Positions 1 to 19,506 of a DNA stretch of 64,000 nucleotides are shown here, in pieces; the stretch's first letter is position 1; each line of letters starts with the position of its first letter. The DNA is taken from assembly GCA_024275485.1 (NCBI GenBank), contig JAJRZA010000053.1, positions 24,608-88,607 on the forward strand. The letters run 5' to 3'. A program made the translations under genes and the position numbers. A model generated the notes under the pieces. That model saw nothing but the letters and a program-made list of their open reading frames with translations, was not told where the DNA came from and searched no databases. This stretch comes from Candidatus Krumholzibacteriota bacterium (lineage in GTDB: Bacteria > Krumholzibacteriota > Krumholzibacteriia > LZORAL124-64-63).

Positions 1-1384
1 GAATAATTCCGGCAATACCCGGCAAGGTGAGAACCAAGCCAAACTGGGCCAACACCGCCATCAGGATGATGATGTTGCTGATAAGGGCCAGCACCACCAC
101 CAGGCCAGTGGAACGGTAATAGACAAGCATGAACAGAATGACGAAGACGGAGCCGTACATGGCGGCAGAAACGCCCTTCTGGATGGAGTCACTACCAAGG
201 CTCGGTCCCACGGTGCGCTCTTCGGCGATATAGACGTCGGCAGGCAAGGCACCAGCGCGCAGAAGCAAGGCCAGATCGCTGGCTTCGGTGTTGGTAAAGC
301 TGCCGGTAATCACACCCTGGCCGCCCGGGATACGCCCCTGAATGGAGGGGGCACTGCTGATGCGGCTGTCCAGGCTGATGGCCAGCTGGCGTCCCACATT
401 GTCACCAGTAACTTTGGCGAAGGTGCGGGCACCACGGCTATCGAGGGTAAAGCTGACCTGGAACAGACCGGGGCGTTCAACATTGTTTCTGGCCTCGGCT
501 CCTTCGAGACGATCGCCGGTCAGGGCCGGCAGCCTGTCCACCAGGAAAATGGCCCGGAAGAAAGTATTGTCGCCCACGTCAATGGCCTTGTCGCCAAGCT
601 GGAATTCGGTGTCGTTCATGACACGGGCGCAACGGGGATCGTCAAGCATTGCTTGCATTCGTCCCACATCTGATTCGTCCAGGAACAGGGTGGCGCCTAC
701 ACCACCAAGACCAGGCTGAGCAATCAGGAGACCGCTGAAAGGATGCTCGGCCCGATAGAGGTCGTCACTGACTTCAGGAGTATCTCCGGGCTCCAGGGTG
801 CCGAAGGGATTGTCTTCGGCAACGGTGCTGTCAGCCATGGCATAATCCTCGCCTGCAGCTTCCTTCGCCTCGGCAGCGGCCACAGCGGCTTCATCCAGGA
901 AGGCACGATCCAGTTTTTCAAGCACACCCTGAATTTCGGTATCGGGTCTAACCATTCGGAATTCCAGACGGGCGGTCTTGCCAAGAAGTTTTTTGGCGCG
1001 TTCGGGATCTTGCAGGCCCGGTAATTTCACCACGATGCGACTGGCACCAAACGTGGTAATTTCCGGCTCCGAGACACCAAACTTGTCGACACGCCTGATC
1101 AGGCTCTCTTTAACCCGTTGCAGGGCATCCTGGGCTTCTGCGGGGGTCATACCGGTTTGGTCAATTTCCAGAACCAGGTACATGCCACCCTTGAGGTCCA
1201 GGCCACGGCGAATGGCCTTGCTGTCGATTTCTTCGATCTCAGCCAGACGTTCAGGGTTGTTTTTGGCTGCGGCGCGCTCTTCCTTGGAAATGGACAGAGC
1301 CTTGAACGTGGGCCACAATCCAATGAGGGAGAGCAACAGGACGACGACACTCAATCCTGCCCTGATCTGCAGGGAACGATTCAT
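1..1384 (-). CDS. secD: Protein translocase subunit SecD (3' end runs off the window)
   Basis: Not in the ORF track; translated by hand from ATG 1384 (RBS-like ccaggag): MNRSLQIRAG...RGLDLKGGMYLVLE...RVDKFGVSEPEI...KLPGLQDPERAK...LLRAGALP...ERTVGPSLGSDSI...LTLPGIAGII, all SecD hallmarks. Confidence 0.97.
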   Translation of the reverse strand, partial: MNRSLQIRAGLSVVVLLLSLIGLWPTFKALSISKEERAAAKNNPERLAEIEEIDSKAIRRGLDLKGGMYLVLEIDQTGMTPAEAQDALQRVKESLIRRVDKFGVSEPEITTFGASRIVVKLPGLQDPERAKKLLGKTARLEFRMVRPDTEIQGVLEKLDRAFLDEAAVAAAEAKEAAGEDYAMADSTVAEDNPFGTLEPGDTPEVSDDLYRAEHPFSGLLIAQPGLGGVGATLFLDESDVGRMQAMLDDPRCARVMNDTEFQLGDKAIDVGDNTFFRAIFLVDRLPALTGDRLEGAEARNNVERPGLFQVSFTLDSRGARTFAKVTGDNVGRQLAISLDSRISSAPSIQGRIPGGQGVITGSFTNTEASDLALLLRAGALPADVYIAEERTVGPSLGSDSIQKGVSAAMYGSVFVILFMLVYYRSTGLVVVLALISNIIILMAVLAQFGLVLTLPGIAGII

Positions 1385-1653: not shown

Positions 1654-2754
1654 TCAGTCTCTGAGCTGCAAATCGTACTGACGGTTTCCCAAACCAAGAG
1701 CTTGCGCCCGCTCCATCAAGGGTCCCGGCTCCTGCAGAAAACCACTCCATTGACGCAACCCGTGGATGTCTCCCTCCACCAGAAGATCCCAGGTGGCCTG
1801 ATCCAGGGCAACCGGATCGGACGAAACCAACACTCCTTTGACATCAGGTTTTTGGTGCACACGACCAAACCCACCAGCTGCCTGCCGGGGTACCGGGGTC
1901 AGAAAGTTTGCATACAACAAGCAATCACTTTTGGCGGCACGACTTTGGCTGGCCACCGCGAATCCCGCCTCGGCCACCTGCTTCTGGAAACGGGGAATGC
2001 GGGCGGCATCTTCCGGACTGATGCCCGCCAGATGACAAGCCGTCATGCACTCTCCACACCCGGTGCAGAGTTGATGATCGATGAAGGCCCGTCCTGCTCG
2101 AATGGCGATGGCATCAAAAATACAGGCAGCCAGACAGGAACCGCAACCGGCACACAGGGGCGTGTCCACCGTTGGGCGGATATCCCGGTGCAGCAGTAAT
2201 TTCGATTCCCGATCCAGAACTCCACAACCCAGGGAAAAAAGCGCTCCACTCATGCCCAGATGGGGATGCGGGAGCACGGAATTAAGGAGCATCAGTCCCC
2301 CGGCTGCCGCAGCAACTGTTGACAAGGTGATGGCAGGTAAAGCACATTCATCCGAAAGGGATAAACTTTCTCCGGCCGGGTTATGGGGATCATCGCCCAC
2401 CACAAAAAAATCCAGCAGATCCAATTGACCCGCCCTCTCAAGCATGCCATCGGCAGTGTCCAGCCCGGCAGTTGTTATGGAAAGAGTATCAAACATGGGA
2501 TCTGGGTTATGGCCCCCTTTCTTGAGTCCCGCCCGAACCGCCTGCAGCCATCGAGGCAAAACAGCATTGGTTTGCCCGAGTGCATTCATGGGGATTTTCA
2601 GTGCCCAGGGAGCCCGCAGATCACTGGGTTTTCCCTTCCCCAACTCGGCAACCGCTGTCTCCAGCAATTCCAGAAACCGGACATCAAAACCCTGGCCGGG
2701 GATCAACTCGCCCGCCCGACAAAATATCACCGGACTCGGAATGCTCCCAGTCAT
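1654..2754 (-). CDS. DUF362-family protein with 2x[4Fe-4S] ferredoxin insert (divergent)
   Basis: CAGCGSCLAAC and CTGCGECMTAC motifs plus the SSDPVALDQA C-terminal motif; ATG 2754 overlaps the upstream TGA (ATGA). Confidence 0.8.
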   Translation of the reverse strand: MTGSIPSPVIFCRAGELIPGQGFDVRFLELLETAVAELGKGKPSDLRAPWALKIPMNALGQTNAVLPRWLQAVRAGLKKGGHNPDPMFDTLSITTAGLDTADGMLERAGQLDLLDFFVVGDDPHNPAGESLSLSDECALPAITLSTVAAAAGGLMLLNSVLPHPHLGMSGALFSLGCGVLDRESKLLLHRDIRPTVDTPLCAGCGSCLAACIFDAIAIRAGRAFIDHQLCTGCGECMTACHLAGISPEDAARIPRFQKQVAEAGFAVASQSRAAKSDCLLYANFLTPVPRQAAGGFGRVHQKPDVKGVLVSSDPVALDQATWDLLVEGDIHGLRQWSGFLQEPGPLMERAQALGLGNRQYDLQLRD

Positions 2755-4232
2755 GGTGTCACTCCCGAATAATTCGGACGCATCAGGGCCATCATTTCCG
2801 ATACTGTCACAAAGCATATGCCGTCGGCTTGAAGCTTGGGAATTTCCCTGGCCAGAACATTCAAGGTGGCCACGTGAGGATGCCCAATGCCCAAGGCAAA
2901 CCCCTTGTTGCGCGCCGACCTGATCAGGAGGTTCAAGTTTGCCGTGATGGTTTCTTCATTCTCACTGTCGTAATCCAGGAAAATACGGTTGCGCAGGGTC
3001 GGAACTCCAGCCTCACGAGCCATGCCATTGGCCACGGAATTTGCTGAGGTCAGACTGTCGAGAAAAAAGAGACCTTTCTTGCGCAAAACTTCCATCAGGG
3101 CCCGCATGGTGGCCGGATCACTGGTGGCAGCACTTCCCATGTGATTGTTCAAGCCCCTGATGCCGGGCAAATTTTTTAGTTTGTCATCCAGAAGTTGGCT
3201 GATGGTGGCCTGATCCATACCAATCAAAAGAGGCTCAACTCCTGGATTGATCCCAGGATACCCCTGAGGCTCCATGGGAAGATGAAGAATGACTTCGCGC
3301 CGTTTGCGGGGGACCGCCACCTGCTTTTTACCCAGGCGCAATTCCACAAAACATCCCGCAGCCAACCTCTGAGTCCGGTCGGCTGGTAAGCTTTCCCTTC
3401 CGGAAAGGACCGTTTCACCACCGCAGGGAAAAGCCAATTCAGTGTTTTCCAAGGAAAATTGCCGTGAAAAAGGCAAATTGGGCAATACGGCCATGGTCAG
3501 GGGAATTGGCAGTTTGAGCAGGCCCCGGGTGGCTTGGTTTCGAGTGTGCCCCCAATCATCGATGACCAGGGCCACCACCGGGCCTGTGCATTTTGCACGG
3601 AATTGATCCCAGGCAGAAGGTCCGGCCTGATCTCCCCAAATCAAGGCTGGGTTCATTCCATCCCGATGCAATACCAGGGTATGTGTCGGCTTGCCGCTGA
3701 CTCCGATATCCAACCGCAGCAGATCTTTTTCACTGTTGAGCTGACGTTGGTCCCCCCTGGTTTGTTGGGGGTAAATCTTTTGACCCCAGAGGATACAACC
3801 ACCGATTTTCTTGAGGGAGTGGGCCAAAGCCAACTGGATGCTCTCGTAGGAGATGCCAACAGGAACAGCCACCAGACGACAGCGCACATAAGCCCGGGTG
3901 CCCAACTGCGCAGCCGGCCAATCCAGGTCCGATTCCCCGGAGGCCGCTCCCGGACGAAAATTGGGGAATTGCCCCACCAACACACTTTCGATTCTATTCT
4001 GGACATCGAAAAAGGCCTGGTCCGACCCCATGGTAAGCAAGGTGGCCTGGCCGGTGCCGGAGTTGGCCCATTTGAGAAAACCGATGCCACCGACAAGCAC
4101 CACAATGGCTGCCACCAGAATCCAGGTGAGAGACGTGATGCGAGGACCGCCGCTTTTCTTGTGTCTGCCGCGCTTTGGGTTCCGCTTTGTATTTGTCTTT
4201 TTCTTGCCGCCAAAGCGACCGGGAAGTTTCAA
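2751..4232 (-). CDS. Divergent polysaccharide deacetylase family protein (YibQ/DUF610-like) with N-terminal membrane anchor
   Basis: VALVIDDWG, EVILHLPMEP, GLNNHMGS, FFLDSLTS, RNRIFLD and IGHPH motifs; basic N-terminus followed by one TM helix. TTG start is uncertain. Confidence 0.9.
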   Translation of the reverse strand: MKLPGRFGGKKKTNTKRNPKRGRHKKSGGPRITSLTWILVAAIVVLVGGIGFLKWANSGTGQATLLTMGSDQAFFDVQNRIESVLVGQFPNFRPGAASGESDLDWPAAQLGTRAYVRCRLVAVPVGISYESIQLALAHSLKKIGGCILWGQKIYPQQTRGDQRQLNSEKDLLRLDIGVSGKPTHTLVLHRDGMNPALIWGDQAGPSAWDQFRAKCTGPVVALVIDDWGHTRNQATRGLLKLPIPLTMAVLPNLPFSRQFSLENTELAFPCGGETVLSGRESLPADRTQRLAAGCFVELRLGKKQVAVPRKRREVILHLPMEPQGYPGINPGVEPLLIGMDQATISQLLDDKLKNLPGIRGLNNHMGSAATSDPATMRALMEVLRKKGLFFLDSLTSANSVANGMAREAGVPTLRNRIFLDYDSENEETITANLNLLIRSARNKGFALGIGHPHVATLNVLAREIPKLQADGICFVTVSEMMALMRPNYSGVTP

Positions 4233-4362: not shown

Positions 4363-4974
4363 TCAATTGGGGTTGGCGAACCCTTTCTGGCCCACCATGG
4401 TCCACAATCCGTTGGAACCCTGGATAACGTAGAAATCCACCCTCTGGGCCACTTCAAAGCGGTGATTATCCGGATTTTCAAAGTGAATCAAAAGATTGTA
4501 ACGAGCCTTGTAGGCATCACGACCACCAAAGTACTCTTCAGATTCCTCAACCGGCTCCCAGGTGCCTTCCTTATCCAGAAGATCAACGCTGATGGAGTCG
4601 ATGGGGGGTTGAGCTATGCCGGATTCATCCACACCACCGAGACCTTCGAACATATTGCGGTGAATCTGGATCTCGACATCCCGGTCAAAAAAGAGCTCGG
4701 TAAGGGGATTGTCACTGCCCTCCCAGAGGTCAAAGGTTTCCTGCAGCAACACCGTGCGGTAGTCTGGATGCAGGATAGCTTCAAATTCTCCCGAGTCCAT
4801 CTCTTGGTAGATGTCCTTAAAGTTTCTCATCAAAATATCGGGAGTCGTGTTGGGTGGACGACCAACATCCCCGCCATCATCGGAGCCCGTATCATCAGGG
4901 GAGAAGATACAGCCCGTAGCGCCCACCAGGAGAGCAAGAGTGGCGAGCAGCATCAGAAGATTTTTCAGTTTCAT
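4363..4974 (-). CDS. Hypothetical lipoprotein (paralog 1)
   Basis: ggagg RBS and ATG 4974; MKLKNLLMLLATLALLVGATG-C lipobox; acidic mature domain. Confidence 0.85.
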   Translation of the reverse strand: MKLKNLLMLLATLALLVGATGCIFSPDDTGSDDGGDVGRPPNTTPDILMRNFKDIYQEMDSGEFEAILHPDYRTVLLQETFDLWEGSDNPLTELFFDRDVEIQIHRNMFEGLGGVDESGIAQPPIDSISVDLLDKEGTWEPVEESEEYFGGRDAYKARYNLLIHFENPDNHRFEVAQRVDFYVIQGSNGLWTMVGQKGFANPN

Positions 4975-5097
4975 TGCATTTTCCTCCAAAAGGACCCGTG
5001 AACCCGGGGTTCGAATCTGGGGCGACAAAAACCCTCAAACCCCGTGACCCCACTTTGGTTCCGCTTTATTCAGGAACTATTTTAACATATTCTGCTA

Positions 5098-5712
5098 TTA
5101 ATTGCTACCAAATGTTCCTCTCAACACCCCCATTGTGGGAAGAATTTGTCCAGAATCAGGGTCGCTTTCTCCTACCTGATCCTCCCAGCGAAAAACATAC
5201 CAAAAGTTGCCTTGCAAGCGAAAGGTTATTATGGCAGAGGCGCGATAGCGGGTTTCGGAGCCATCGGCATCATTGGTCACCTTGATATAATATATGACCC
5301 CTTCCCAGCGAACTTCGTCGCCCACTGGCTCAGGCATATTAAAATCATCATTTCTCATTTTTGCAAGGTTTGATACACCAGAACTGTAAAAGTTAGTGAT
5401 AAAAGTGAGTTCTTTGGCCAAATCCCAGCCCACAAACGCTCCGGGAAACTGGTTTTCCGCCTCTGCATCGGCAATATAGGTGAACTCGGAATGGAGGTTT
5501 TCCTCCCAACCAAAACTGTCGTTGTTGTCAAGGGAGAGCTGGAGGTTTTCCCAAACGTTGCGCGGTTCGGTGCGTGGCAGATAACTGATGGATGTTCCAC
5601 TGCTGGGAGGATCCGGATCCCTGGGTGTGAAGATGCATCCACCGAACAACGCCGACAGCAACAAAACCGAGCCCAAAAGTGCCAACCGTTGAAAAATATT
5701 AACGGCTTTCAT
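5098..5712 (-). CDS. Hypothetical lipoprotein (paralog 2)
   Basis: MKAVNIFQRLALLGSVLLLSALFGG-C lipobox; mature start CIFTP resembles CIFSP of the neighbour; ATG lies 1 nt after the upstream stop. Confidence 0.85.
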   Translation of the reverse strand: MKAVNIFQRLALLGSVLLLSALFGGCIFTPRDPDPPSSGTSISYLPRTEPRNVWENLQLSLDNNDSFGWEENLHSEFTYIADAEAENQFPGAFVGWDLAKELTFITNFYSSGVSNLAKMRNDDFNMPEPVGDEVRWEGVIYYIKVTNDADGSETRYRASAIITFRLQGNFWYVFRWEDQVGESDPDSGQILPTMGVLRGTFGSN

Positions 5713-5713
5713 G

Positions 5714-7774
5714 TTAGAACTCCCATTTCAGCCAGAGATCGCTCTCCCAGTAATCGGAGCTGGCCTCCGAAATGCTGGGACCAAAAGCGTTGTATTTCTT
5801 GATCATGGCGGACAACTCCAGGGGATTCTTACTCCCCCATTTACGGCTAACACGGGTACCGATCCAAATTTTTCCTTCCAGGCGCCCGGTCACCCGGTCG
5901 GTAGTGCTGATGGTAATTTTTTCGTCCTTGGTGTTGTAGGTGGCCCCTTCAAGGATGACTCCATTGGCCACATCGAATTTGAAAGACAGGTCGATTTTTC
6001 CAATGGTTTGTCGCTGGTTCGTAAAATATTCGTTGCTGCCCGAGCTGCCTTCATTGGTTTTTTCTGCGCTGAAACGCTTGTTGAAATCGTACTTGACCGT
6101 AATATTAAGACGTTTGGTGGGCTTGAGTTTCACTACCGTGGAAAGATTGCCACGTTTGTTGTAGTTGTCCACACGAGATGAGCCTTCCAGGTGCGAAAAA
6201 GTATAGTCGGTATATTGGATGTAGACACGATAGTTCTGACTGAAGGTCAACCAAGAGGAGATGGGCCAGCTGTAGCTGGGAGAAATTTCAAAACTATCCT
6301 TGACATTGTTGTTGGAGGAACGAGTGGAATGCAGGGCAATATCATTGTTTTGCCTGTAGAAAAACACCATGGTGGTTCGGAAACGCTCCACCCAGTTGCG
6401 TTCCAGCCTGGCTGAAAAATCGTAGCGCAAGCGATCCTTGTCGGTGTTCACGTAACTATTCTCGGCCGTGTCCTGCGTCAATCCGGTGACCCAATTGACC
6501 CGCATTTGGGTATCAGCGAAAAGTATCCGTTCCCAAAGGATTTTCAGGGTTCGATCTTTTTTGTACTGCTTGCCGCGAAACACATCAGAGCCCTTGGTCA
6601 GCTGATCATCCCACTTCCAGAGATAGGAATATTCGAAAGAGAGGGAATCCCGACCCACCATGAAGCTCAGGGCAAATTCGGCCTCCTGCTGGAGCCTCTC
6701 CTTGAAACCAACCCGGCTTATGGAAAAATCGGATTCGTCCGAGGTTTGAGACAGGGTGGTGGCCATGGTCAGGCCCAGAAAACGGGTTTCATTGACCAAA
6801 CTCAAGGTCAGGGCATCCTTGATCTCCATCTCGTCAACAACCTTGTCATCTTCAGCCAGACCCACCGTATCGATCAAACCGTTGGTATCGCGTTTGTAGT
6901 CCAGATACTTGCGATCATAGTTGCCTCGGGTCAGGGAGACACGGCCGCTGGAAAAATTTCGATCGTAGTATACACCAATACCCAAGGTGTCTGTGGTGGA
7001 TGACGAAGGAGCCGTATCTTCCCCCAGGGACCGGTCACCTCCAGTAGCCCGACCGAAGAGACGGCCAGCCACCGTCACCCCCTCGAACACATCGGTACCC
7101 ACCTGCATCCCGCCGTCCAGGTAAGATTCGGCCACGTCGTTGCGCCGGTTTTGGTTGATGGATTTCTGATCATTCATCCCTGCCGAAGATTTTAATGTCA
7201 GCCTCATCCCACCGATTCGCAATTGGGGTTTGCTAAACAAAAGACCGGCGCTCTTGTAGTCGCGTTTGGAAACGTTTTCAAACCCACCGGCATTGATGGT
7301 GTTATCTTCATTCCAATCCCAGCTACCTTTCAAAGTGGCCATAAAAGGCAAGGTGCGACCTGTGTTGTAGCTGGAGTTGGCGCTGCGTTTTTCATTGGTT
7401 TTGATTTGCTGGCGAAATTCGGACCAGGAATAACTGACCTTGTTGGTCATGGTTGCGCCTTGGGCCATGGTGATGATGTTGGTGAAATCGCCGTAATACA
7501 TGTAGCTGGTAACGTTGGTTTTGATACCTGCCTTCGGAGTATTTTTTAATCCCACCAAAAATGACGTATCCTGTTCCCGCCCCTGGTTGAGGTCCTGGTA
7601 AACTCCTTCTTGGCCCTCTGCCGCTTCGGCCACGCCGGCAAGCCCCCCCGAAGCCGGGGAATCGGTAGTCAGGGTATCTCCCTCAGCACCGGACATGGAA
7701 TCGGCAGCTGCCTCGCCATGGGCCCAAACCAACGTTGCCGGTACACACAGAACCACTATCAGGAGCAACAACAC
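5714..7774 (-). CDS. Large predicted outer-membrane beta-barrel protein of unknown family
   Basis: Signal peptide ending LVWA, many alternating amphipathic strands, C-terminal WLKWEF (BAM-type terminal Phe). Start is GTG 7774 or possibly CTG 7813. Confidence 0.75.
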   Translation of the reverse strand: MLLLLIVVLCVPATLVWAHGEAAADSMSGAEGDTLTTDSPASGGLAGVAEAAEGQEGVYQDLNQGREQDTSFLVGLKNTPKAGIKTNVTSYMYYGDFTNIITMAQGATMTNKVSYSWSEFRQQIKTNEKRSANSSYNTGRTLPFMATLKGSWDWNEDNTINAGGFENVSKRDYKSAGLLFSKPQLRIGGMRLTLKSSAGMNDQKSINQNRRNDVAESYLDGGMQVGTDVFEGVTVAGRLFGRATGGDRSLGEDTAPSSSTTDTLGIGVYYDRNFSSGRVSLTRGNYDRKYLDYKRDTNGLIDTVGLAEDDKVVDEMEIKDALTLSLVNETRFLGLTMATTLSQTSDESDFSISRVGFKERLQQEAEFALSFMVGRDSLSFEYSYLWKWDDQLTKGSDVFRGKQYKKDRTLKILWERILFADTQMRVNWVTGLTQDTAENSYVNTDKDRLRYDFSARLERNWVERFRTTMVFFYRQNNDIALHSTRSSNNNVKDSFEISPSYSWPISSWLTFSQNYRVYIQYTDYTFSHLEGSSRVDNYNKRGNLSTVVKLKPTKRLNITVKYDFNKRFSAEKTNEGSSGSNEYFTNQRQTIGKIDLSFKFDVANGVILEGATYNTKDEKITISTTDRVTGRLEGKIWIGTRVSRKWGSKNPLELSAMIKKYNAFGPSISEASSDYWESDLWLKWEF

Positions 7775-7809
7775 CTGGGCCGCAAATCCGGTTTGCCAAG
7801 CGGATCGGT

Positions 7810-8646
7810 TCAGGGCATATCCTTTCGGGGCAACAGCCGGGCCAGGCGGCGCCAGGAAGGAGCTTCCAGTTGCTCGGGACGCAAGTCCATGTCCACTCCG
7901 GCATCCTCTGCCAGGGTTTGAATTGTTTCAGGTGTCAATTTGAAATGACTGCGCAGTTGCGTCCTCAATTTTTTGCGCCTTTGTTGGAACAGGGCTTTAA
8001 CCACAGCGAGAAATTGGCGGAATTCTTCGTCCGGCCAGGAGCCGCTGGGCACCAACTGCACCACAGCCGATTCTACATCCGGCCGGGGCCAGAAAACCGA
8101 TGAAGGAACAGTTCTGCTGATACGAATATCAAAGATGGAGCCCAACACCACGGCCAAAATTCCAAAATCACGGCCACCGCAAGTGGCGACCAGTCGCTCT
8201 GCCACTTCCTTTTGGACCATGAACACCGCCCCGCTGATCACCTCTCGATGATCGGCCAGGGCAAACAGAACCTTACTTGTAAGGACGTAGGGCAGATTGC
8301 CGGCCACCACGGGTTTCAATCCGGCAAGCACCAGGGTACCAGCCCAGTCCAGCTTGGAAAGATCGGCTTCAACCAGTTCAAAATTTGGCAAAGCACCGTG
8401 TTCGGCGGTGAGCAGGGCGCAAAGATGGCGATCAACCTCCACACCGACGACTCTTCGGGCCGATGCCAACAGGTGAATGGTCAGCGCACCCGCGCCGGCA
8501 CCCAGTTCCAGGACTTCATCACCCAGATCCAGGATGTCCTGGGCAATGGCCCGGGCCAAATTGGTATCGATCAGGAAATTTTGCCCCCTGCGTTTGACAG
8601 GTCGAATTCCATAGTCGCGCAAAAGTGACTGTTGGCTACGAGACAA
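7810..8646 (-). CDS. rsmA: 16S rRNA m6,2A1518/1519 dimethyltransferase RsmA/KsgA
   Basis: KRRGQNFLID, VLELGAGAGALT, VAGNLPY, MVQKEVAERL, FWPRPDVESAV and QRRKKL motifs; TTG 8646 follows a GGAGG RBS. Confidence 0.96.
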   Translation of the reverse strand: MSRSQQSLLRDYGIRPVKRRGQNFLIDTNLARAIAQDILDLGDEVLELGAGAGALTIHLLASARRVVGVEVDRHLCALLTAEHGALPNFELVEADLSKLDWAGTLVLAGLKPVVAGNLPYVLTSKVLFALADHREVISGAVFMVQKEVAERLVATCGGRDFGILAVVLGSIFDIRISRTVPSSVFWPRPDVESAVVQLVPSGSWPDEEFRQFLAVVKALFQQRRKKLRTQLRSHFKLTPETIQTLAEDAGVDMDLRPEQLEAPSWRRLARLLPRKDMP

Positions 8647-9439
8647 GAGGTCCTCCAGCAAAGAGTCGTCGAAAGTTCTTTGTGGTTTGAATATCGACTT
8701 CATTTTCCGTCATGCCCAAAACCGAGGCCACCTTGGCCCTGGTGTGCACCAGGTAGGACGATTCATTACGTTGCCCGCGATGAGGAACCGGCGGCAACCA
8801 GGGGGCATCGGTCTCCAGGAGAATCATTTCGATTCCAGCCAGTGCCACCAGGAAATCCAGTCGACTGTTTTTATAAGTGATGGGACCACCAATGCCGAGA
8901 TAAAATCCGCGCTCACGGGCCCATTCCACCGAGTCTTCATTTCCGGAAAAGGAATGCAGGATTCCACCGCAGGTGGGTACCCCGAACTCGTCGATCATGG
9001 CCAAAGTCTCCGTCCAGGCGTCTCTTATGTGAAACACCACAGGCAACTGAAGATCCTCCGCCATTGCCAATTGCAATTTCAATGCCGCTCTTTGGGCGGG
9101 GCGGGGGCTCAAGTCACGGTAGAAATCCAGCCCTATTTCGCCAATGGCCACCACCCGGGGATGCTTCGCCAAGTCCCTTAAACGGGCCAGAATGTCTTCT
9201 ATTTCGGGCACCGGCCTACCATCCGCATCTGCCAGCAGGGTGGCATCGTGGGGATGAATGCCGACGGTGGCCAAAATATCAGCATGGGATTCGGCCAGGG
9301 AAATGCTTTCTGTACTGCTGGCAAGGTCGTAGCCCACGTTGAGGAAGGCGGTGACACCGGCTGAGCGGGCACGTTGCAGGACCTCGGCTTGGGCACCAGC
9401 GAATTCCTCGCGGTTCAAGTGGACGTGACTGTCGATCAT
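8636..9439 (-). CDS. tatD: TatD-family metal-dependent DNase/hydrolase
   Basis: MIDSHVHL, TVGIHPH, AIGEIGLDFY, HSFSG and LETDAPWL motifs; ATG 9439 overlaps the upstream TGA. Confidence 0.95.
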   Translation of the reverse strand: MIDSHVHLNREEFAGAQAEVLQRARSAGVTAFLNVGYDLASSTESISLAESHADILATVGIHPHDATLLADADGRPVPEIEDILARLRDLAKHPRVVAIGEIGLDFYRDLSPRPAQRAALKLQLAMAEDLQLPVVFHIRDAWTETLAMIDEFGVPTCGGILHSFSGNEDSVEWARERGFYLGIGGPITYKNSRLDFLVALAGIEMILLETDAPWLPPVPHRGQRNESSYLVHTRAKVASVLGMTENEVDIQTTKNFRRLFAGGPLVS

Positions 9440-10413
9440 TTGCAACCACCGCCGTTTTTCCCGCAACCGCCTCCCGAACAACCTGAGGGAGGTTTGGGCT
9501 CGGGCAAATCCCGCTGTCCCTCCCAGGTCAATTCCCCAACTGAATATTCGGTCATGCGGTCCAATCCCACGACCGAGACGGAGACTATCTCCCTGATCAG
9601 ATCCAGTTTGCGCACGGTTCCGCGGCCATCCGGAGTGTTCAGGCGAGTGCCCACCCTCGGCATGCGCCGACGAATATCCAGGTAACTCTCCTGCTCGTAG
9701 GTCAGGCAGCAGCGCAGTCGGCCGCAGGGTCCACTCAACTTGCCGGGATTTAGGGGGAGCTGTTGCACTTTGGCCATTTTCAGGGTCACCGGAACAAATT
9801 CGTGCAAGAAACTGGAACAACAGAATTCTCGTCCGCAAACGCCGAGACCGCCCTTGAGTCGGGCTTCATCACGAACCCCGATTTGGCGCAGCTCTATGCG
9901 GGTGCGAAAAACGGAAGCCAGATCCCGCACCAATTCACGGAAATCCACCCGCTTTTCCGCGGTGAAAAAGAAGGTGATTTTTTTGTGGTCGAACTGTCGC
10001 TCCACCGAGACAAGGTTCATCTTCAGCCTGCGGGCAATAATTTTCTCCCGACAGATGTCCCAGAACTCCCACTCGTCGCCACGGTTGTTGTGCAGGCGGG
10101 CCAGATCGGATTTGGTCGCCAGGGACATGACACCCTGCCGATTCGCCGCTGCCCACCAATCCAGGTTACCGGGGCCGACGTAGTTGATGCGCCCCATGTC
10201 GTAGCCACGATCAGCCTCCACCAGGCAATAATGCCCAACCTTCAGGTCCACCAGTTTGCGGTTGTGGTAATAACCTTTGCGATGGCCCTTGAACTGGACC
10301 AGCACCAGGTCTTCGCCGGACAAATCCTGGTTTCTGGTTGAATCCTGCCCGGGACCGCGGTGACCGGGTTTGCCCCGGTTCCTGCCATCAGACGGATTGG
10401 TCTCGTGCAGCAT
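9436..10413 (-). CDS. ricT: PSP1-domain protein (RicT/YaaT-like)
   Basis: FFFTAEKRVDFRELVRDLA, RIELRQIGVRDEA, GVCGREFCC and KLSGPCGRLRCCLTYE motifs. Confidence 0.92.
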   Translation of the reverse strand: MLHETNPSDGRNRGKPGHRGPGQDSTRNQDLSGEDLVLVQFKGHRKGYYHNRKLVDLKVGHYCLVEADRGYDMGRINYVGPGNLDWWAAANRQGVMSLATKSDLARLHNNRGDEWEFWDICREKIIARRLKMNLVSVERQFDHKKITFFFTAEKRVDFRELVRDLASVFRTRIELRQIGVRDEARLKGGLGVCGREFCCSSFLHEFVPVTLKMAKVQQLPLNPGKLSGPCGRLRCCLTYEQESYLDIRRRMPRVGTRLNTPDGRGTVRKLDLIREIVSVSVVGLDRMTEYSVGELTWEGQRDLPEPKPPSGCSGGGCGKNGGGCK

Positions 10414-16244: not shown

Positions 16245-17579
16245 TCAGATTTTCTCATCAATAAAGAAGCGTTTTTTCAACCCTTCCACATATTCCGCCA
16301 AAGCAACTTCAATTTTTTCGCTCTCAACAGCCTGCCGCAGATTGTCCTTCAGCTCTTCGAAGGTGTACTTGTGGCCTTCGGTCTTTCCCAGTACCTGGAA
16401 GATATACCAACCGGCCGGGGTCAACAGCGGTTCGGTTACCACACCAACTTCAGCATCCTGCAAGGCCTCCTGGAACTGGGTGGAAAGATCCTTGAGACTG
16501 AATGTACCGAGCAGACCACCTTTGCCAGCAGATACTGGATCGGCGCTGACCTCGGCCGCCACCCGGGCGAAATTCTCACCCGAGATTATGCGCTGGCGGG
16601 CAGCCTTGATCTGATCTTCAGCCAGCTTCATATCCGCTTCGGTAATTTCGATGGGAAAAAAGATCTGACTGAGAGCACGCTTGCCATTGGGTTGAACGGA
16701 GTTGACCAGTAAAAGGTGAACCCCCCGGGAGCTGATCACAGGATCACTCACCTGGCCCACCAGCAGGGAAAAGACAGCTCGGTCCAGGCTGGAGTCGAAA
16801 AGATCGCCCGGCCCCACCACTCCCACTGCCCCACCTCGACTGGCGTTGGGGCCGGCGCTGTACTTTCGAGCCAAATGTTCAAAACTCACCCCGGCAGCCA
16901 GTTCCGCTTGCACCTTTTCCACATTCACCTGAATTTCCTGGCGCACCGTCAGGCTGGGCTGCACCGGGACCAGAATATTGGCGATGGTCAGACTATCGGG
17001 TTCCACAGGCATTTCCGCCAGATGATCCAGGTAGTAGTCCCTAACTTCATTGTCCAACACCTCGACCTTGGGCCGGATAAATTTTCCCACCACCAGGCGC
17101 AAGTACTGCTGGTCACGCATTTGGCTGCTCATGCGTGTCTTGTAGTCACCCAGAGTCATGCCATTGCGTTTCAATTCGGTCTGCAAGGCGTCAAGGGAAC
17201 CAAAGTGTTCGATAAACTGGTCGATTTTCTGCTGGACGCTGGCTTCGATGGCTTCTTCATCCACCGACATGTCCTCCTGTTTGGCTGCCGCGATAATCAG
17301 CTTGCTCTCCATGAGGCGCTCGAGCATTTCCCGACGCACCTCGGTGGGGGTTTCGCTGATGGTCTGACCGGCATATTCTTTTTCCAGTTGGTAGAGTTCG
17401 ACTTCCCTGTCCACATCACTCTGCAGAATGGCCTCTTCATCGACGATGGCCACGATTCGATCCACAAGGACCGTCTCCTGGGCTACGGCTGCCGGTATGA
17501 ATGCCGTCAGCCACAGGAAACAGAATCCCCAAAAACCTGGGCCCCAAACCCGTCGATTGTTTACTCGCAAGATCATCAA
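16245..17579 (-). CDS. surA: SurA-like periplasmic chaperone/PPIase
   Basis: Signal peptide, VDRIVAIVDEEAILQSDV N-terminal domain, two parvulin domains (FEHLARKYS...GG; FARVAAEVSADP...GGLLG). Confidence 0.88.
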   Translation of the reverse strand: MMILRVNNRRVWGPGFWGFCFLWLTAFIPAAVAQETVLVDRIVAIVDEEAILQSDVDREVELYQLEKEYAGQTISETPTEVRREMLERLMESKLIIAAAKQEDMSVDEEAIEASVQQKIDQFIEHFGSLDALQTELKRNGMTLGDYKTRMSSQMRDQQYLRLVVGKFIRPKVEVLDNEVRDYYLDHLAEMPVEPDSLTIANILVPVQPSLTVRQEIQVNVEKVQAELAAGVSFEHLARKYSAGPNASRGGAVGVVGPGDLFDSSLDRAVFSLLVGQVSDPVISSRGVHLLLVNSVQPNGKRALSQIFFPIEITEADMKLAEDQIKAARQRIISGENFARVAAEVSADPVSAGKGGLLGTFSLKDLSTQFQEALQDAEVGVVTEPLLTPAGWYIFQVLGKTEGHKYTFEELKDNLRQAVESEKIEVALAEYVEGLKKRFFIDEKI

Positions 17580-17590
17580 TCCTCCAGGAA

Positions 17591-19450
17591 TCAGTTACGG
17601 GGAACCAGGTTATCGGGGACCTTGACCTCGGTGAGTTCTTTCCAGGACTTCAATTCGGCCAGCTTTTCAGTGAAAATCTCCACCCCGATTTCGTCTTTCC
17701 ATTCCTCCAGAATCTTTACAAAAGCGGCCTCCTGACGTTTGCTCCGCATTCGTCCACCGATAGCCTCGGAAACCTCATACAATTCGTAGGCTTTCGAGGG
17801 CTTGATGAAGTCCAGCTGGACCACGGCAAAATTGCCCTCGTTCACGGTGAATGGTTGGCTGACTCCCCCCACTTCGAGAGCAAAGAACTTTGCGGCCAGA
17901 GGTGATGGGCTATTGATACCCAAATAATCGGTTTTACCGCCACGTTGCTTGTTATTCGGGTCAGTGCCAAAATCCACCAGGATCTTGCGCCAGGAAACGC
18001 CATCGATGATGGCCTTGTAGGCTTCATCGGCCTTCTCCCGGTTCAAGCAAATAACCAGATGGCCAGCGCGGGTCTCGGGAGAGATATATTCATCCTGGTG
18101 CTCGGCCCAGAACTCCGCCAACTGCTCGGGAGTGATCTTTTCATCATATGCAACAGCTTCCTTGTACAGACGCGTCACCATGATCTCTTCGATCTTCTTA
18201 TCCACGATGGCAACCACATCCGCTCGTTCGAAATAGCCACGCTTTTCAGCTTCAATGTTCATCATTCCGCGCTCAATTTCATCTTCAATCTTCCGCCGCA
18301 GGCCACCAAGCATTTCTTCTTTTTTGGGACGTTGGAAAACACCCATTTTGTCGAAATGGATTTTATAGTCAGCCACCGTCGATTCGACGGGTTGCCCATC
18401 TTTCCCCTTGTATGAATAGAAAATCAGTCCCAGGTCTTCGGTCCTGACCTCCAGATCCTTCAATTGGTCGCGTTTGTATGGCTCATTGGTTTACGGATCC
18501 ATCAGCCCGCCTTCGGGCATCCCCTGGTACACGGCCCACAGAGCATCCTGATTGATTTTAAACTCGTATTTGGCTCTGATCTCTTTTTTGAATTTCTGGC
18601 GCGTTTCACCAATTTTTCGGTTGCGGGCGATATCCAGGATATGGGCCTTGGCCACTTCCAAATCAGGTTTTTCGTCATGCCTGATTTCAATCACACGCAC
18701 AACCCAATAACCATAGGAGGAAAGAATTGGCAGGGAAACACCTCCCAGATCGGTGGCGAAGATTTTTTCCTCAAAATCCAAGGAGTATTGCCCAAAAGGC
18801 ACCAAGAGTTCGTATTTGTTGGACACCGAACGAGTGCCATCATGGTACTTGTTGACCACATCCTCCCAGTCAGCACCGGACAAGGCGTATTGCCGAGCTT
18901 TCAGGGCATCCGCTTCCAGATTACAGATCACGTAATTGCAATTATATACAGTGCCCATCTTGGAATAAAAATCCTGAAGTTCCTCTTCAGAGATGGTGGA
19001 TGTTACCTCCAGCACCACGTCGTTCCACAAAGCCAGACCGGCCTGGTACTGGATCATATTCAGGCGGGCGGAAATCACGGTGGGATCCAGATTGTAACCC
19101 AGCTTGATGGCTTTTTGATTCATGAGTTCTTTGTTGACCAGGACATCCATAAAGGCACGCTTGCCTTCCAGGGTGCCCATGTCCATGACAACGCCATCTT
19201 TCCGGGGAAGTTCATCGACGGTCAAATTGGACAAGCGGTCTTCGTAATATTTGGCTGTGATCTCACCATCGCCCACTTTGGCCAGCACCGCGGAGTGGTC
19301 CTCGTATTTGGAAAAGTCATTGTCGGCCTTGTCGCCGCCACAGCCAGTGGCCAGAAGAGACACCAAAATGGCGCCCACCAGAATCAGGGTTGTGGAAATT
19401 GTTGGACGGTTCCTGAGGGAGGTCCGATTGGTAGCGAGGCTCGAAAACAT
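17591..19450 (-). pseudogene. Tandem-repeat PrsA/SurA-like PPIase lipoprotein interrupted by an in-frame TAA at 18491-18493 (ORFs 18491-19450 and 17591-18463)
   Basis: aaggag RBS and ATG 19450, LLATG-C lipobox, two chaperone/parvulin-like repeats. Both ORFs share one frame: ...GLMDP*TNEPYKRDQLKDLEV... Confidence 0.8.
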
Positions 19451-19506
19451 GATCACTCCTTGTTTTTGGTCCAAATTTGGATTTATCCGGATATTCCGGA
19501 TTCGGT

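Follow-up and report, generated by a model that had tools for sequence, protein, structure and literature searches.

A predicted 28-stranded outer-membrane barrel encoded with two NTF2-fold lipoproteins in Krumholzibacteriota and two further candidate phyla

We describe three adjacent genes, for a very large outer-membrane barrel and two lipoproteins (together the trio), in a stretch of 64,000 nucleotides from a Candidatus Krumholzibacteriota bacterium (GenBank assembly GCA_024275485.1, contig JAJRZA010000053.1, positions 24,608 to 88,607 of the forward strand). This whole stretch is referred to as the window, and window positions are counted from its first letter. The barrel is shown to represent a new family, ancient and universal in its phylum, that on the structure model has 28 strands and no plug. 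The two lipoproteins are shown to be paralogs of NTF2-like fold that are dedicated to the barrel, being coupled to it by gene arrangement, by evolutionary rate and by a private linker motif.

The barrel protein

The barrel gene lies at 5714..7774 on the minus strand, starts with GTG and encodes 686 amino acids. In the translation residues 1-18 (MLLLLIVVLCVPATLVWA; 7721..7774, minus strand) are a signal peptide, with cleavage predicted between MLLLLIVVLCVPATLVWA and HGE, and a low-complexity acidic stretch comes next. Residues 19-72 (7559..7720, minus strand) form an acidic linker that is disordered in the AlphaFold2 (AF2) model and poorly conserved in our alignment A1 (59 sequences, drawn from the 74 proteins found by the barrel search), where the consensus is mostly 'x'. 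The barrel domain, residues 73-686 with the stop codon (5714..7558, minus strand), ends in DYWESDLWLKWEF. The C-terminus (WLKWEF) closes with an invariant residue, F686, which is preceded by conserved Trp residues, W684 and W676. The initial annotation of this DNA had described a protein of 686 residues with a signal peptide, an acidic N-terminus and a terminal Phe, and in this it is borne out by the translation.

The AF2 model, based on A1, has a mean predicted local distance difference test score (pLDDT) of 83.7 and a predicted template modelling score (pTM) of 0.68. Residues 1-72 are disordered, with pLDDT below 50 at residues 9-67, and residues 73-684 form 28 long strands, with strand 1 beginning at residue 73; the manual count in the initial annotation had been 24-26. 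The connections after even-numbered strands, predicted to be the periplasmic turns, are mostly of 2-5 residues with a maximum of 8, and those after odd-numbered strands, predicted to be the extracellular loops, are of 2-18 residues. On the model this is the canonical outer-membrane topology, and the loops are all too short to bend into the lumen and block it. The proposal of a single very large barrel without a plug of its own thus holds for residues 73-684 of the model. No plug, polypeptide-transport-associated (POTRA) domain or jellyroll was found in the barrel by AF2 or among Pfam and NCBIfam families (zero matches at E<=1), in agreement with the earlier failure to recognise a TonB plug, POTRA domain or LptD jellyroll. 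In particular an N-terminal jellyroll of the OstA/LptD_N type is ruled out, as residues 1-72 are disordered and have no Pfam match. A reading as two smaller barrels in place of one is unlikely, because Foldseek gives only barrels of 22-36 strands, aligned over the full length.

Polar residues (Ser, Thr, Lys, Arg, Asp, Asn, Glu), which face the lumen, alternate along the strands with hydrophobic residues (Leu, Val, Phe, Ile, Tyr, Trp), which face the lipid, and the putative lumen face would carry 46 Lys/Arg against 35 Asp/Glu. With a signal peptide, an even number of amphipathic strands, short periplasmic turns and a C-terminal aromatic beta-signal, the protein has the generic features of an outer-membrane barrel. 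The shortest strands of the model, of 11-14 residues where the others have 16-23, are those at the seam (b27, b28 and b1-b4), and strand 1 has a proline (P80) that is found in 53/59 close homologs and 45/56 distant ones. By standard geometry we estimate for a barrel of 28 strands a C-alpha diameter near 5 nm and a lumen some 4 nm wide.

The GC content of the trio region dips to 0.49, with flanks at 0.55-0.58. We attribute the dip to the Asn/Lys/Tyr/Ser/Thr-rich composition of the barrel and not to recent transfer, as the trio genes keep their position across whole phyla.

Comparison with known families

In Pfam and NCBIfam nothing was found at E<=1 for the barrel, lipoprotein 1 or lipoprotein 2, nor for distant members of the barrel family, and a search of all PDB sequences with the barrel profile gave nothing at E<=10. 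A profile search of 1.84 billion representative proteins found only 189 relatives of the barrel, the complete ones being nearly all of 600-730 amino acids. Foldseek against the PDB found large barrels only, with MtrB (6r2q_B) at the top (E=1.5e-11, query TM-score (TMq) 0.45), followed by TonB-dependent transporters, LptD and SprA (TMq <=0.33, target TM-score (TMt) <=0.38). The fold class is thus clear, but no solved structure is close. These results support the view, put forward in the initial annotation, that the barrel belongs to no known outer-membrane protein family. The trio matches no family in Pfam, NCBIfam, the PDB sequences or the searchable literature, where no paper pairs '28-stranded' with 'outer membrane' and no module of NTF2 lipoprotein and barrel is described. 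A large barrel with a lipoprotein partner is a known kind of arrangement; it is the family of the trio that is new.

The TonB-dependent, Omp85, Slam and type IX secretion system (T9SS) families were each considered and rejected, there being no Pfam or NCBIfam match at E<=1 for the trio or for distant family members. The SusC/SusD and other TonB-dependent systems, which are common in FCB-group bacteria, likewise pair a barrel with a lipoprotein encoded alongside, and in them the lipoprotein lies over the lumen. However the trio barrel has no match to PF07715 or PF00593, no plug, TonB box or globular N-terminal domain, and 28 predicted strands in place of 22, and its TM-score to these transporters is <=0.33. 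For Omp85/BamA/TamA there is no PF01103 match in the barrel, and the 10 Omp85 matches in the genome are all elsewhere. Slam is also an outer-membrane barrel encoded beside lipoproteins, which in our case are proteins that the barrel may handle, but Slam is a 14-strand DUF560 barrel with periplasmic tetratricopeptide (TPR) repeats, neither of which is present in the trio barrel. One homolog has the UniRef label TIGR03016, a PEP-CTERM-associated outer membrane protein, but the label could not be reproduced: NCBIfam hmmscan gave no TIGR03016 match at E<=10 for the labelled protein (P0339) and seven other members, and none at E<=1 for the window barrel.

MtrB is the best structural match (PDB 6r2q chain B). 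It is a short-looped sheath barrel of 26 strands that is closed only by its threaded partner MtrA and has a lipoprotein partner, MtrC. The likeness is limited by the low TM-score and a sequence identity of 9%. Membership of the MtrB/PioB family was rejected, as TMq is just 0.45 and the lipoproteins of the trio have no CXXCH or other heme motif, the single Cys in each being the lipid anchor, and there are no cytochrome genes in the operon.

The LptD-LptE system has a very large barrel and a small lipoprotein, and it shares with the trio a core envelope-biogenesis context. LptD is a 26-strand barrel with its lumen filled by the dedicated lipoprotein LptE, and the seam between its strands beta1 and beta26 is thin, contains prolines and serves as a lateral gate. 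The trio barrel differs in having 28 predicted strands, no jellyroll and no sequence or profile similarity, with a Foldseek TM-score of <=0.38, and its lipoproteins are two paralogs of NTF2 fold; moreover the genome has its own LptD. This is a canonical LptD of 1318 amino acids on contig C13 (LptD_N, OstA_2 and LptD_2, E=7.4e-49), and hhalign of the barrel profile with it gives a probability of 0.5%. The trio barrel, which at E<=1 has no match to the LptD profiles PF04453, PF19838 or PF03968, is therefore not LptD, nor a replacement for it. The LptD barrel model PF04453 has no match anywhere in this genome. The canonical LptD gene is followed, after about 0.9 kb, by a gene for a multiheme cytochrome (Cytochrome_C554, with a weak match to MtrC/MtrF domain II/IV) at open reading frame (ORF) 217-1335, minus strand, of locus L034 (G000:C13:27000-38000).

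The two lipoproteins

Lipoprotein 1 (5098..5712, minus strand, ATG start) has 204 amino acids with a lipobox, LFGG-C, ending at Cys26, and its ATG is 1 nucleotide past the barrel stop codon, as the initial annotation had it. Lipoprotein 2 (4363..4974, minus strand) has 203 amino acids and the lipobox GATG-C, ending at Cys22. Its start is likely to be the ATG at 4974, which has a GGAGGA ribosome-binding site, the longer ORF from a TTG at 5028 being less likely. The two genes are separated by a spacer of 123 nucleotides (4975-5097, minus strand), which has a G-rich segment, GGGGTCACGGGGTTTGAGGGTTTTTGTCGCCCC, just upstream of the lipoprotein 2 ribosome-binding site. Promoter and terminator consensus scans gave nothing above chance within the trio or in this spacer.

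For lipoprotein 1 the AF2 model (pLDDT 91.5) is an alpha+beta cone, the fold in which three helices pack against a curved antiparallel sheet, and Foldseek found 220 PDB matches at E<=1e-3, the 50 listed being almost all NTF2-like, with TMt up to 0.74. They include 3rob, 3hx8, ketosteroid isomerases and CaMKII hub domains, and on the model lipoprotein 1 is an NTF2-like protein. Lipoprotein 2 is tied to the same fold by its relationship to lipoprotein 1, which is marginal by BLASTP (E=0.044) but clear from alignment of profiles by hhalign (98.2%, E=3.9e-14, 161 columns). The two are, on this sequence comparison, distant paralogs, and here too the first reading of the DNA was right. The NTF2-like superfamily includes SnoaL, DUF4440, ketosteroid isomerase, the CaMKII hub and the N-domain of MlaC, and the lipoproteins differ from it in their lipid anchor, private N-terminal linker motif and C-terminal helix. 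No sequence match to Pfam, NCBIfam or the PDB reaches threshold: two homologs have sub-threshold matches to DUF4440, and lipoprotein 1 had only chance matches among PDB sequence profiles. There was no Pfam match to LptE (PF04390), and the model of lipoprotein 1 does not resemble LptE.

In both lipoproteins C-I-F-x-P follows from the lipid-anchor Cys, the motif being C-I-F-T-P-R-D-P-D-P-P in lipoprotein 1 and C-I-F-S-P-D-D in lipoprotein 2. The search with lipoprotein 1 returned 118 proteins, including the query's own cluster. The lipoprotein 1 linker, C-[ILF]-F-x-P-R-[DE]-x-[DE], hardly varies, with R31 invariant, and the C-terminal tail (MGVLRGTFGSN in the window protein) is also conserved. 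Lipoprotein 1 is better conserved than the barrel, with for example 56% identity against 44% for a pair on one 2.85-Mb contig. The genome has about 151 candidate lipoproteins, of which only lipoproteins 1 and 2 have C-[ILF]-F-x-P after the anchor Cys, and with just 2 of the candidates carrying it the motif was rejected as a genome-wide lipoprotein sorting signal.

The same genome has three stand-alone paralogs of lipoprotein 2, at C19:123177-123860 (minus strand), C52:7563-8246 (plus strand) and C87:7373-8005 (plus strand). Their N-termini are acidic (CSDDP in C19 and C52, CTED in C87), and those of C19 and C52 end in L-S-[ML]-Y-R (LLSMYR and VLSLYR). There is also a secreted paralog of lipoprotein 1 without a lipobox at C69:1671-2234 (minus strand). 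The barrel is single-copy in the genome and the stand-alone paralogs have no barrel of the trio's family nearby.

Distribution and gene order

Using a broad profile (A3) we surveyed 128 Krumholzibacteriota genomes of 90% completeness or more, and found the barrel in 125/128 genomes and 62/63 genera. It is single-copy in each carrier, the few double matches being split genes. Apart from those with generic or placeholder labels, the 40 related loci are labelled Candidatus Krumholzibacteriia or Krumholzibacteriota. Where these loci are long enough the gene order is tatD-ksgA-barrel-lipoprotein 1-lipoprotein 2-yibQ, with DUF362 or pdxJ next. There are families with additional genes between tatD and ksgA, or with three or four lipoprotein paralogs, and the order seems swapped in a few cases (three or four) through over-extended ORF calls. 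Synteny extends to lipoprotein 2 in nearly all loci. Lipoprotein 1 starts 0-1 nucleotides past the barrel stop codon in most Krumholzibacteriota loci, and overlaps it in others.

The order ksgA-barrel-lipoprotein-lipoprotein is kept down to barrel identities of about 15-17% with the window protein, and the weakest matches to the barrel profile are in the same gene context in other lineages. One such genome (G133) belongs to a different phylum, where the barrel was found in 18/61 genomes sampled, the same 18 being recovered by the Krumholzibacteriota profile and by a native profile. The close homologs of the G133 barrel have the NCBI label candidate division Zixibacteria, and the Krumholzibacteriota and Zixibacteria barrel profiles align with a probability of 96.9%. 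Two further homologs are labelled Candidatus Eisenbacteria and are in the context ftsX-M23-holB-PSP1-tatD-ksgA-NTP_transferase-barrel-three small ORFs-secDF.

We examined 8 loci outside Krumholzibacteriota, 7 from the second phylum (Zixibacteria-labelled) and 1 of Eisenbacteria type. In all 8 ksgA is upstream of the barrel, with the NTP-transferase gene intervening in the Eisenbacteria-type locus, and in 7/8 the barrel is followed by lipoprotein paralogs, two in each of six loci; locus L085 ends at the barrel. The Zixibacteria lipoprotein orthologs have a related motif, PF[SA]xRD, after the Cys. The trio is common to at least three uncultured candidate phyla, Krumholzibacteriota, Zixibacteria and Eisenbacteria, the latter two being identified by NCBI labels, and the lipoproteins are syntenic with the barrel across all three, which was one of the checks proposed at the outset.

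Covariation of evolutionary rates

We compared pairwise protein distances for 37 non-redundant loci that carry all six genes, after removal of the ksgA and tatD divergence by a cubic fit. The residual distances correlate at r=0.64 for the barrel and lipoprotein 1, r=0.58 for the barrel and lipoprotein 2, r=0.37 for the two lipoproteins and r=0.20 for the barrel and yibQ, with Mantel p of 0.0005 for the first three pairs and 0.017 for the last. With a linear control the values are 0.58 for lipoprotein 1, 0.21 for lipoprotein 2 and 0.03 for yibQ, each with the barrel. From comparison of the two controls the covariation is thus robust for lipoprotein 1 and method-dependent for lipoprotein 2. It points to a physical partnership of barrel and lipoproteins, but is suggestive rather than decisive, since proteins that share a place in the cell can also come to evolve at coupled rates.

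Operon context

Upstream of the barrel is rsmA/ksgA (7810..8703, minus strand; Pfam RrnaAD, E=6.7e-43), and the GTG start of the barrel is 35 nucleotides past its stop codon. In every locus that reaches upstream ksgA precedes the barrel, directly or, in the Eisenbacteria type, one gene away. Further upstream on the same strand of the window are a surA-like gene (16245-17579), ftsE, ftsX, an M23/EnvC-like peptidase gene, holB, PSP1 and tatD. The trio had been thought to be at the end of its operon, but this is not so, because the same strand continues with a yibQ/sddA-like gene, a gene for a DUF362/4Fe-4S protein and secD. The first of these encodes a YibQ/SddA-like divergent polysaccharide deacetylase (2751..4232, minus strand; Pfam Polysacc_deac_2, E=1.3e-66), and where a Krumholzibacteriota locus reaches far enough yibQ nearly always comes after the trio. 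YibQ of E. coli has recently been characterised as SddA, which deacetylates denuded glycan strands of peptidoglycan and is coexpressed with envC (bioRxiv 10.1101/2025.02.18.638797). The operon mixes cell-division and envelope genes with unrelated housekeeping genes and is conserved across phyla, and therefore only the linkage of barrel and lipoproteins is strong evidence for a shared function.

Several neighbouring genes have features of their own. The window deacetylase has 493 amino acids, with a basic membrane-anchored N-terminal segment and a Polysacc_deac_2 match in two stretches, and must carry an insertion or extension, as its relatives are of about 390-405 amino acids. The tatD ORF (8636-9838, minus strand) has 400 amino acids, with the TatD domain from residue 135 and the 5' part overlapping the end of PSP1, and the true start is probably further downstream. 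In other lineages (loci L080 and L082) TatD is fused to a Radical_SAM domain (456-469 amino acids). Sugar-nucleotide enzymes recur in the operon of the trio, as two Eisenbacteria-type loci (L081, 6222-6989; L090, 6225-7004) have a gene for an NTP-sugar transferase between ksgA and the barrel, overlapping the barrel start, and some Krumholzibacteriota families (L076, 5932-6843; L078, 4487-5398) have one for an NAD-dependent epimerase/dehydratase between tatD and ksgA. Upstream of ftsEX, at 16245-19474 (minus strand), are the gene for the SurA-like chaperone (SurA_N and two rotamase domains) and then two more ORFs.

Interpretation

We suggest that the trio encodes one dedicated outer-membrane complex, in which lipoprotein 1, and probably also lipoprotein 2, would be obligate partners made in step with the barrel. 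We put at even chances a stable complex with an architecture of the LptDE or MtrAB type, its lumen closed by the domains of the lipoproteins. An open pore of 4 nm is incompatible with a permeability barrier and the barrel has no closure of its own, and it is on this basis that we take the lipoproteins to close the lumen. The NTF2-like domains, of about 150 residues each and possibly a heterodimer, would occupy and seal it, and they may be held to the barrel by the conserved anchor linker C-[ILF]-F-x-P-R-[DE] and, in lipoprotein 1, by the conserved C-terminal helix. In Krumholzibacteriota, Zixibacteria and Eisenbacteria such a complex would serve the cell envelope in a core role of the housekeeping type. 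The most speculative steps are that the cone-shaped NTF2 pocket might bind a hydrophobic envelope component, that the barrel might pass this cargo into or across the outer membrane, and that the cargo might exit at the thin seam between strands 28 and 1, near the conserved strand-1 proline. It is a supporting hint that MlaC, a periplasmic carrier of phospholipid, has an NTF2-like domain (PMC12153054). The fuller proposal, that the trio is an independently evolved core machine for outer-membrane biogenesis or transport in the three phyla, with a 28-strand barrel gated by an NTF2 heterodimer and delivering a lipid, glycolipid or lipoprotein through a lateral seam, we consider rather unlikely.

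Several points weigh against the sealed complex and its proposed role. The lumen size and the fit of the lipoproteins are geometric estimates, and some lineages have three or four lipoprotein paralogs after the barrel, which are too many to fit inside. The NTF2 lipoprotein fold is not exclusive to the barrel, given the stand-alone paralogs in the same genome, and the rate covariation can stem from shared envelope location and not contact. The Zixibacteria consensus shows no evident strand-1 proline, and no cargo is indicated by any of the evidence gathered. The interpretation in the initial annotation is thus supported in part. Its large, plugless and new barrel with syntenic lipoproteins has stood and the lipoproteins have covarying rates, plugging or gating by the lipoproteins and a role as translocon are putative, and the strand number and the place in the operon need correction.

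The barrel could instead be a dedicated translocon for surface lipoproteins, Slam-like in function, that exports the adjacent NTF2 lipoproteins and perhaps the stand-alone paralogs, one of them maybe serving as a resting plug. A 28-strand lumen would by geometry have room for a folded domain of about 18 kDa, the number of adjacent paralogs varies from 2 to 4, and Slam genes too adjoin the genes for their substrates. The three stand-alone paralogs with acidic CSDD or CTED N-termini would be further candidates for export, and the tails of those in C19 and C52 resemble the C-termini of Zixibacteria lipoprotein 1 orthologs (EFKNAYR). However C-I-F-x-P is limited to the two linked lipoproteins and is not in the stand-alone paralogs, the greater conservation of lipoprotein 1 than of the barrel would be unusual for surface-exposed cargo, and the barrel has no periplasmic receptor domain, and we think this explanation improbable. 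We give still less credence to a large general pore or structural protein that acts alone, with the lipoproteins merely co-transcribed envelope proteins. In its favour the lumen is polar and the barrel has no function-specific domain, but an open 28-strand pore would abolish the permeability barrier, and the translational coupling, cross-phylum synteny, private N-terminal motif and rate covariation favour physical partnership.

The presence of a Polysacc_deac_2 gene after the trio in Krumholzibacteriota raises the case of an export pore for glycan, either denuded or deacetylated peptidoglycan strands or an exopolysaccharide, working with the YibQ/SddA-like deacetylase as PgaA does with PgaB. 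It is in keeping with this that denuded glycan strands are the substrate of SddA, which has a link to envC, and that in other lineages the operon has an NTP-sugar transferase or epimerase. However the glycan pores known so far are barrels of 16-18 strands, a 4-nm lumen is not needed for a linear polymer, the Eisenbacteria-type trio runs straight into secDF with no Polysacc_deac_2 match at those loci, and the barrel-yibQ covariation is low (r=0.20). The operon also mixes in unrelated housekeeping genes, so that adjacency is weak evidence, and we regard a glycan pore as very unlikely. A divergent LptD/LptE translocon for lipopolysaccharide was suggested by the pairing of a large barrel with a lipoprotein and by the neighbouring genes, as in E. 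coli ksgA is in the cluster lptD-surA-pdxA-ksgA, and surA-like and ksgA genes are nearby in the window and pdxJ in relatives. It is refuted for practical purposes by the canonical LptD of 1318 amino acids elsewhere in the genome, by the absence of a jellyroll and the hhalign probability of 0.5% against that LptD, and by the NTF2 fold of the lipoproteins, which is not that of LptE.

Significance

The known large outer-membrane machines are few (BAM/TAM, LptDE, the TonB-dependent and SusCD transporters, the ushers, MtrAB and SprA), and each of them opened a new piece of envelope biology. The trio adds a barrel wider than that of LptD, which occurs once in nearly every genome of one phylum and is always accompanied by NTF2-fold lipoproteins. 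If the trio is indeed an independent machine gated by NTF2 domains, its barrel would be the widest single-chain barrel after SprA, and the system would parallel LptDE in principle. Although the host organisms are uncultured, the proteins are small enough for heterologous co-expression and cryo-electron microscopy. If the lipoproteins do plug and gate the barrel, this would be an independent invention of the plug-and-barrel design, and could show how uncultured lineages of the FCB group build or maintain their outer membrane.

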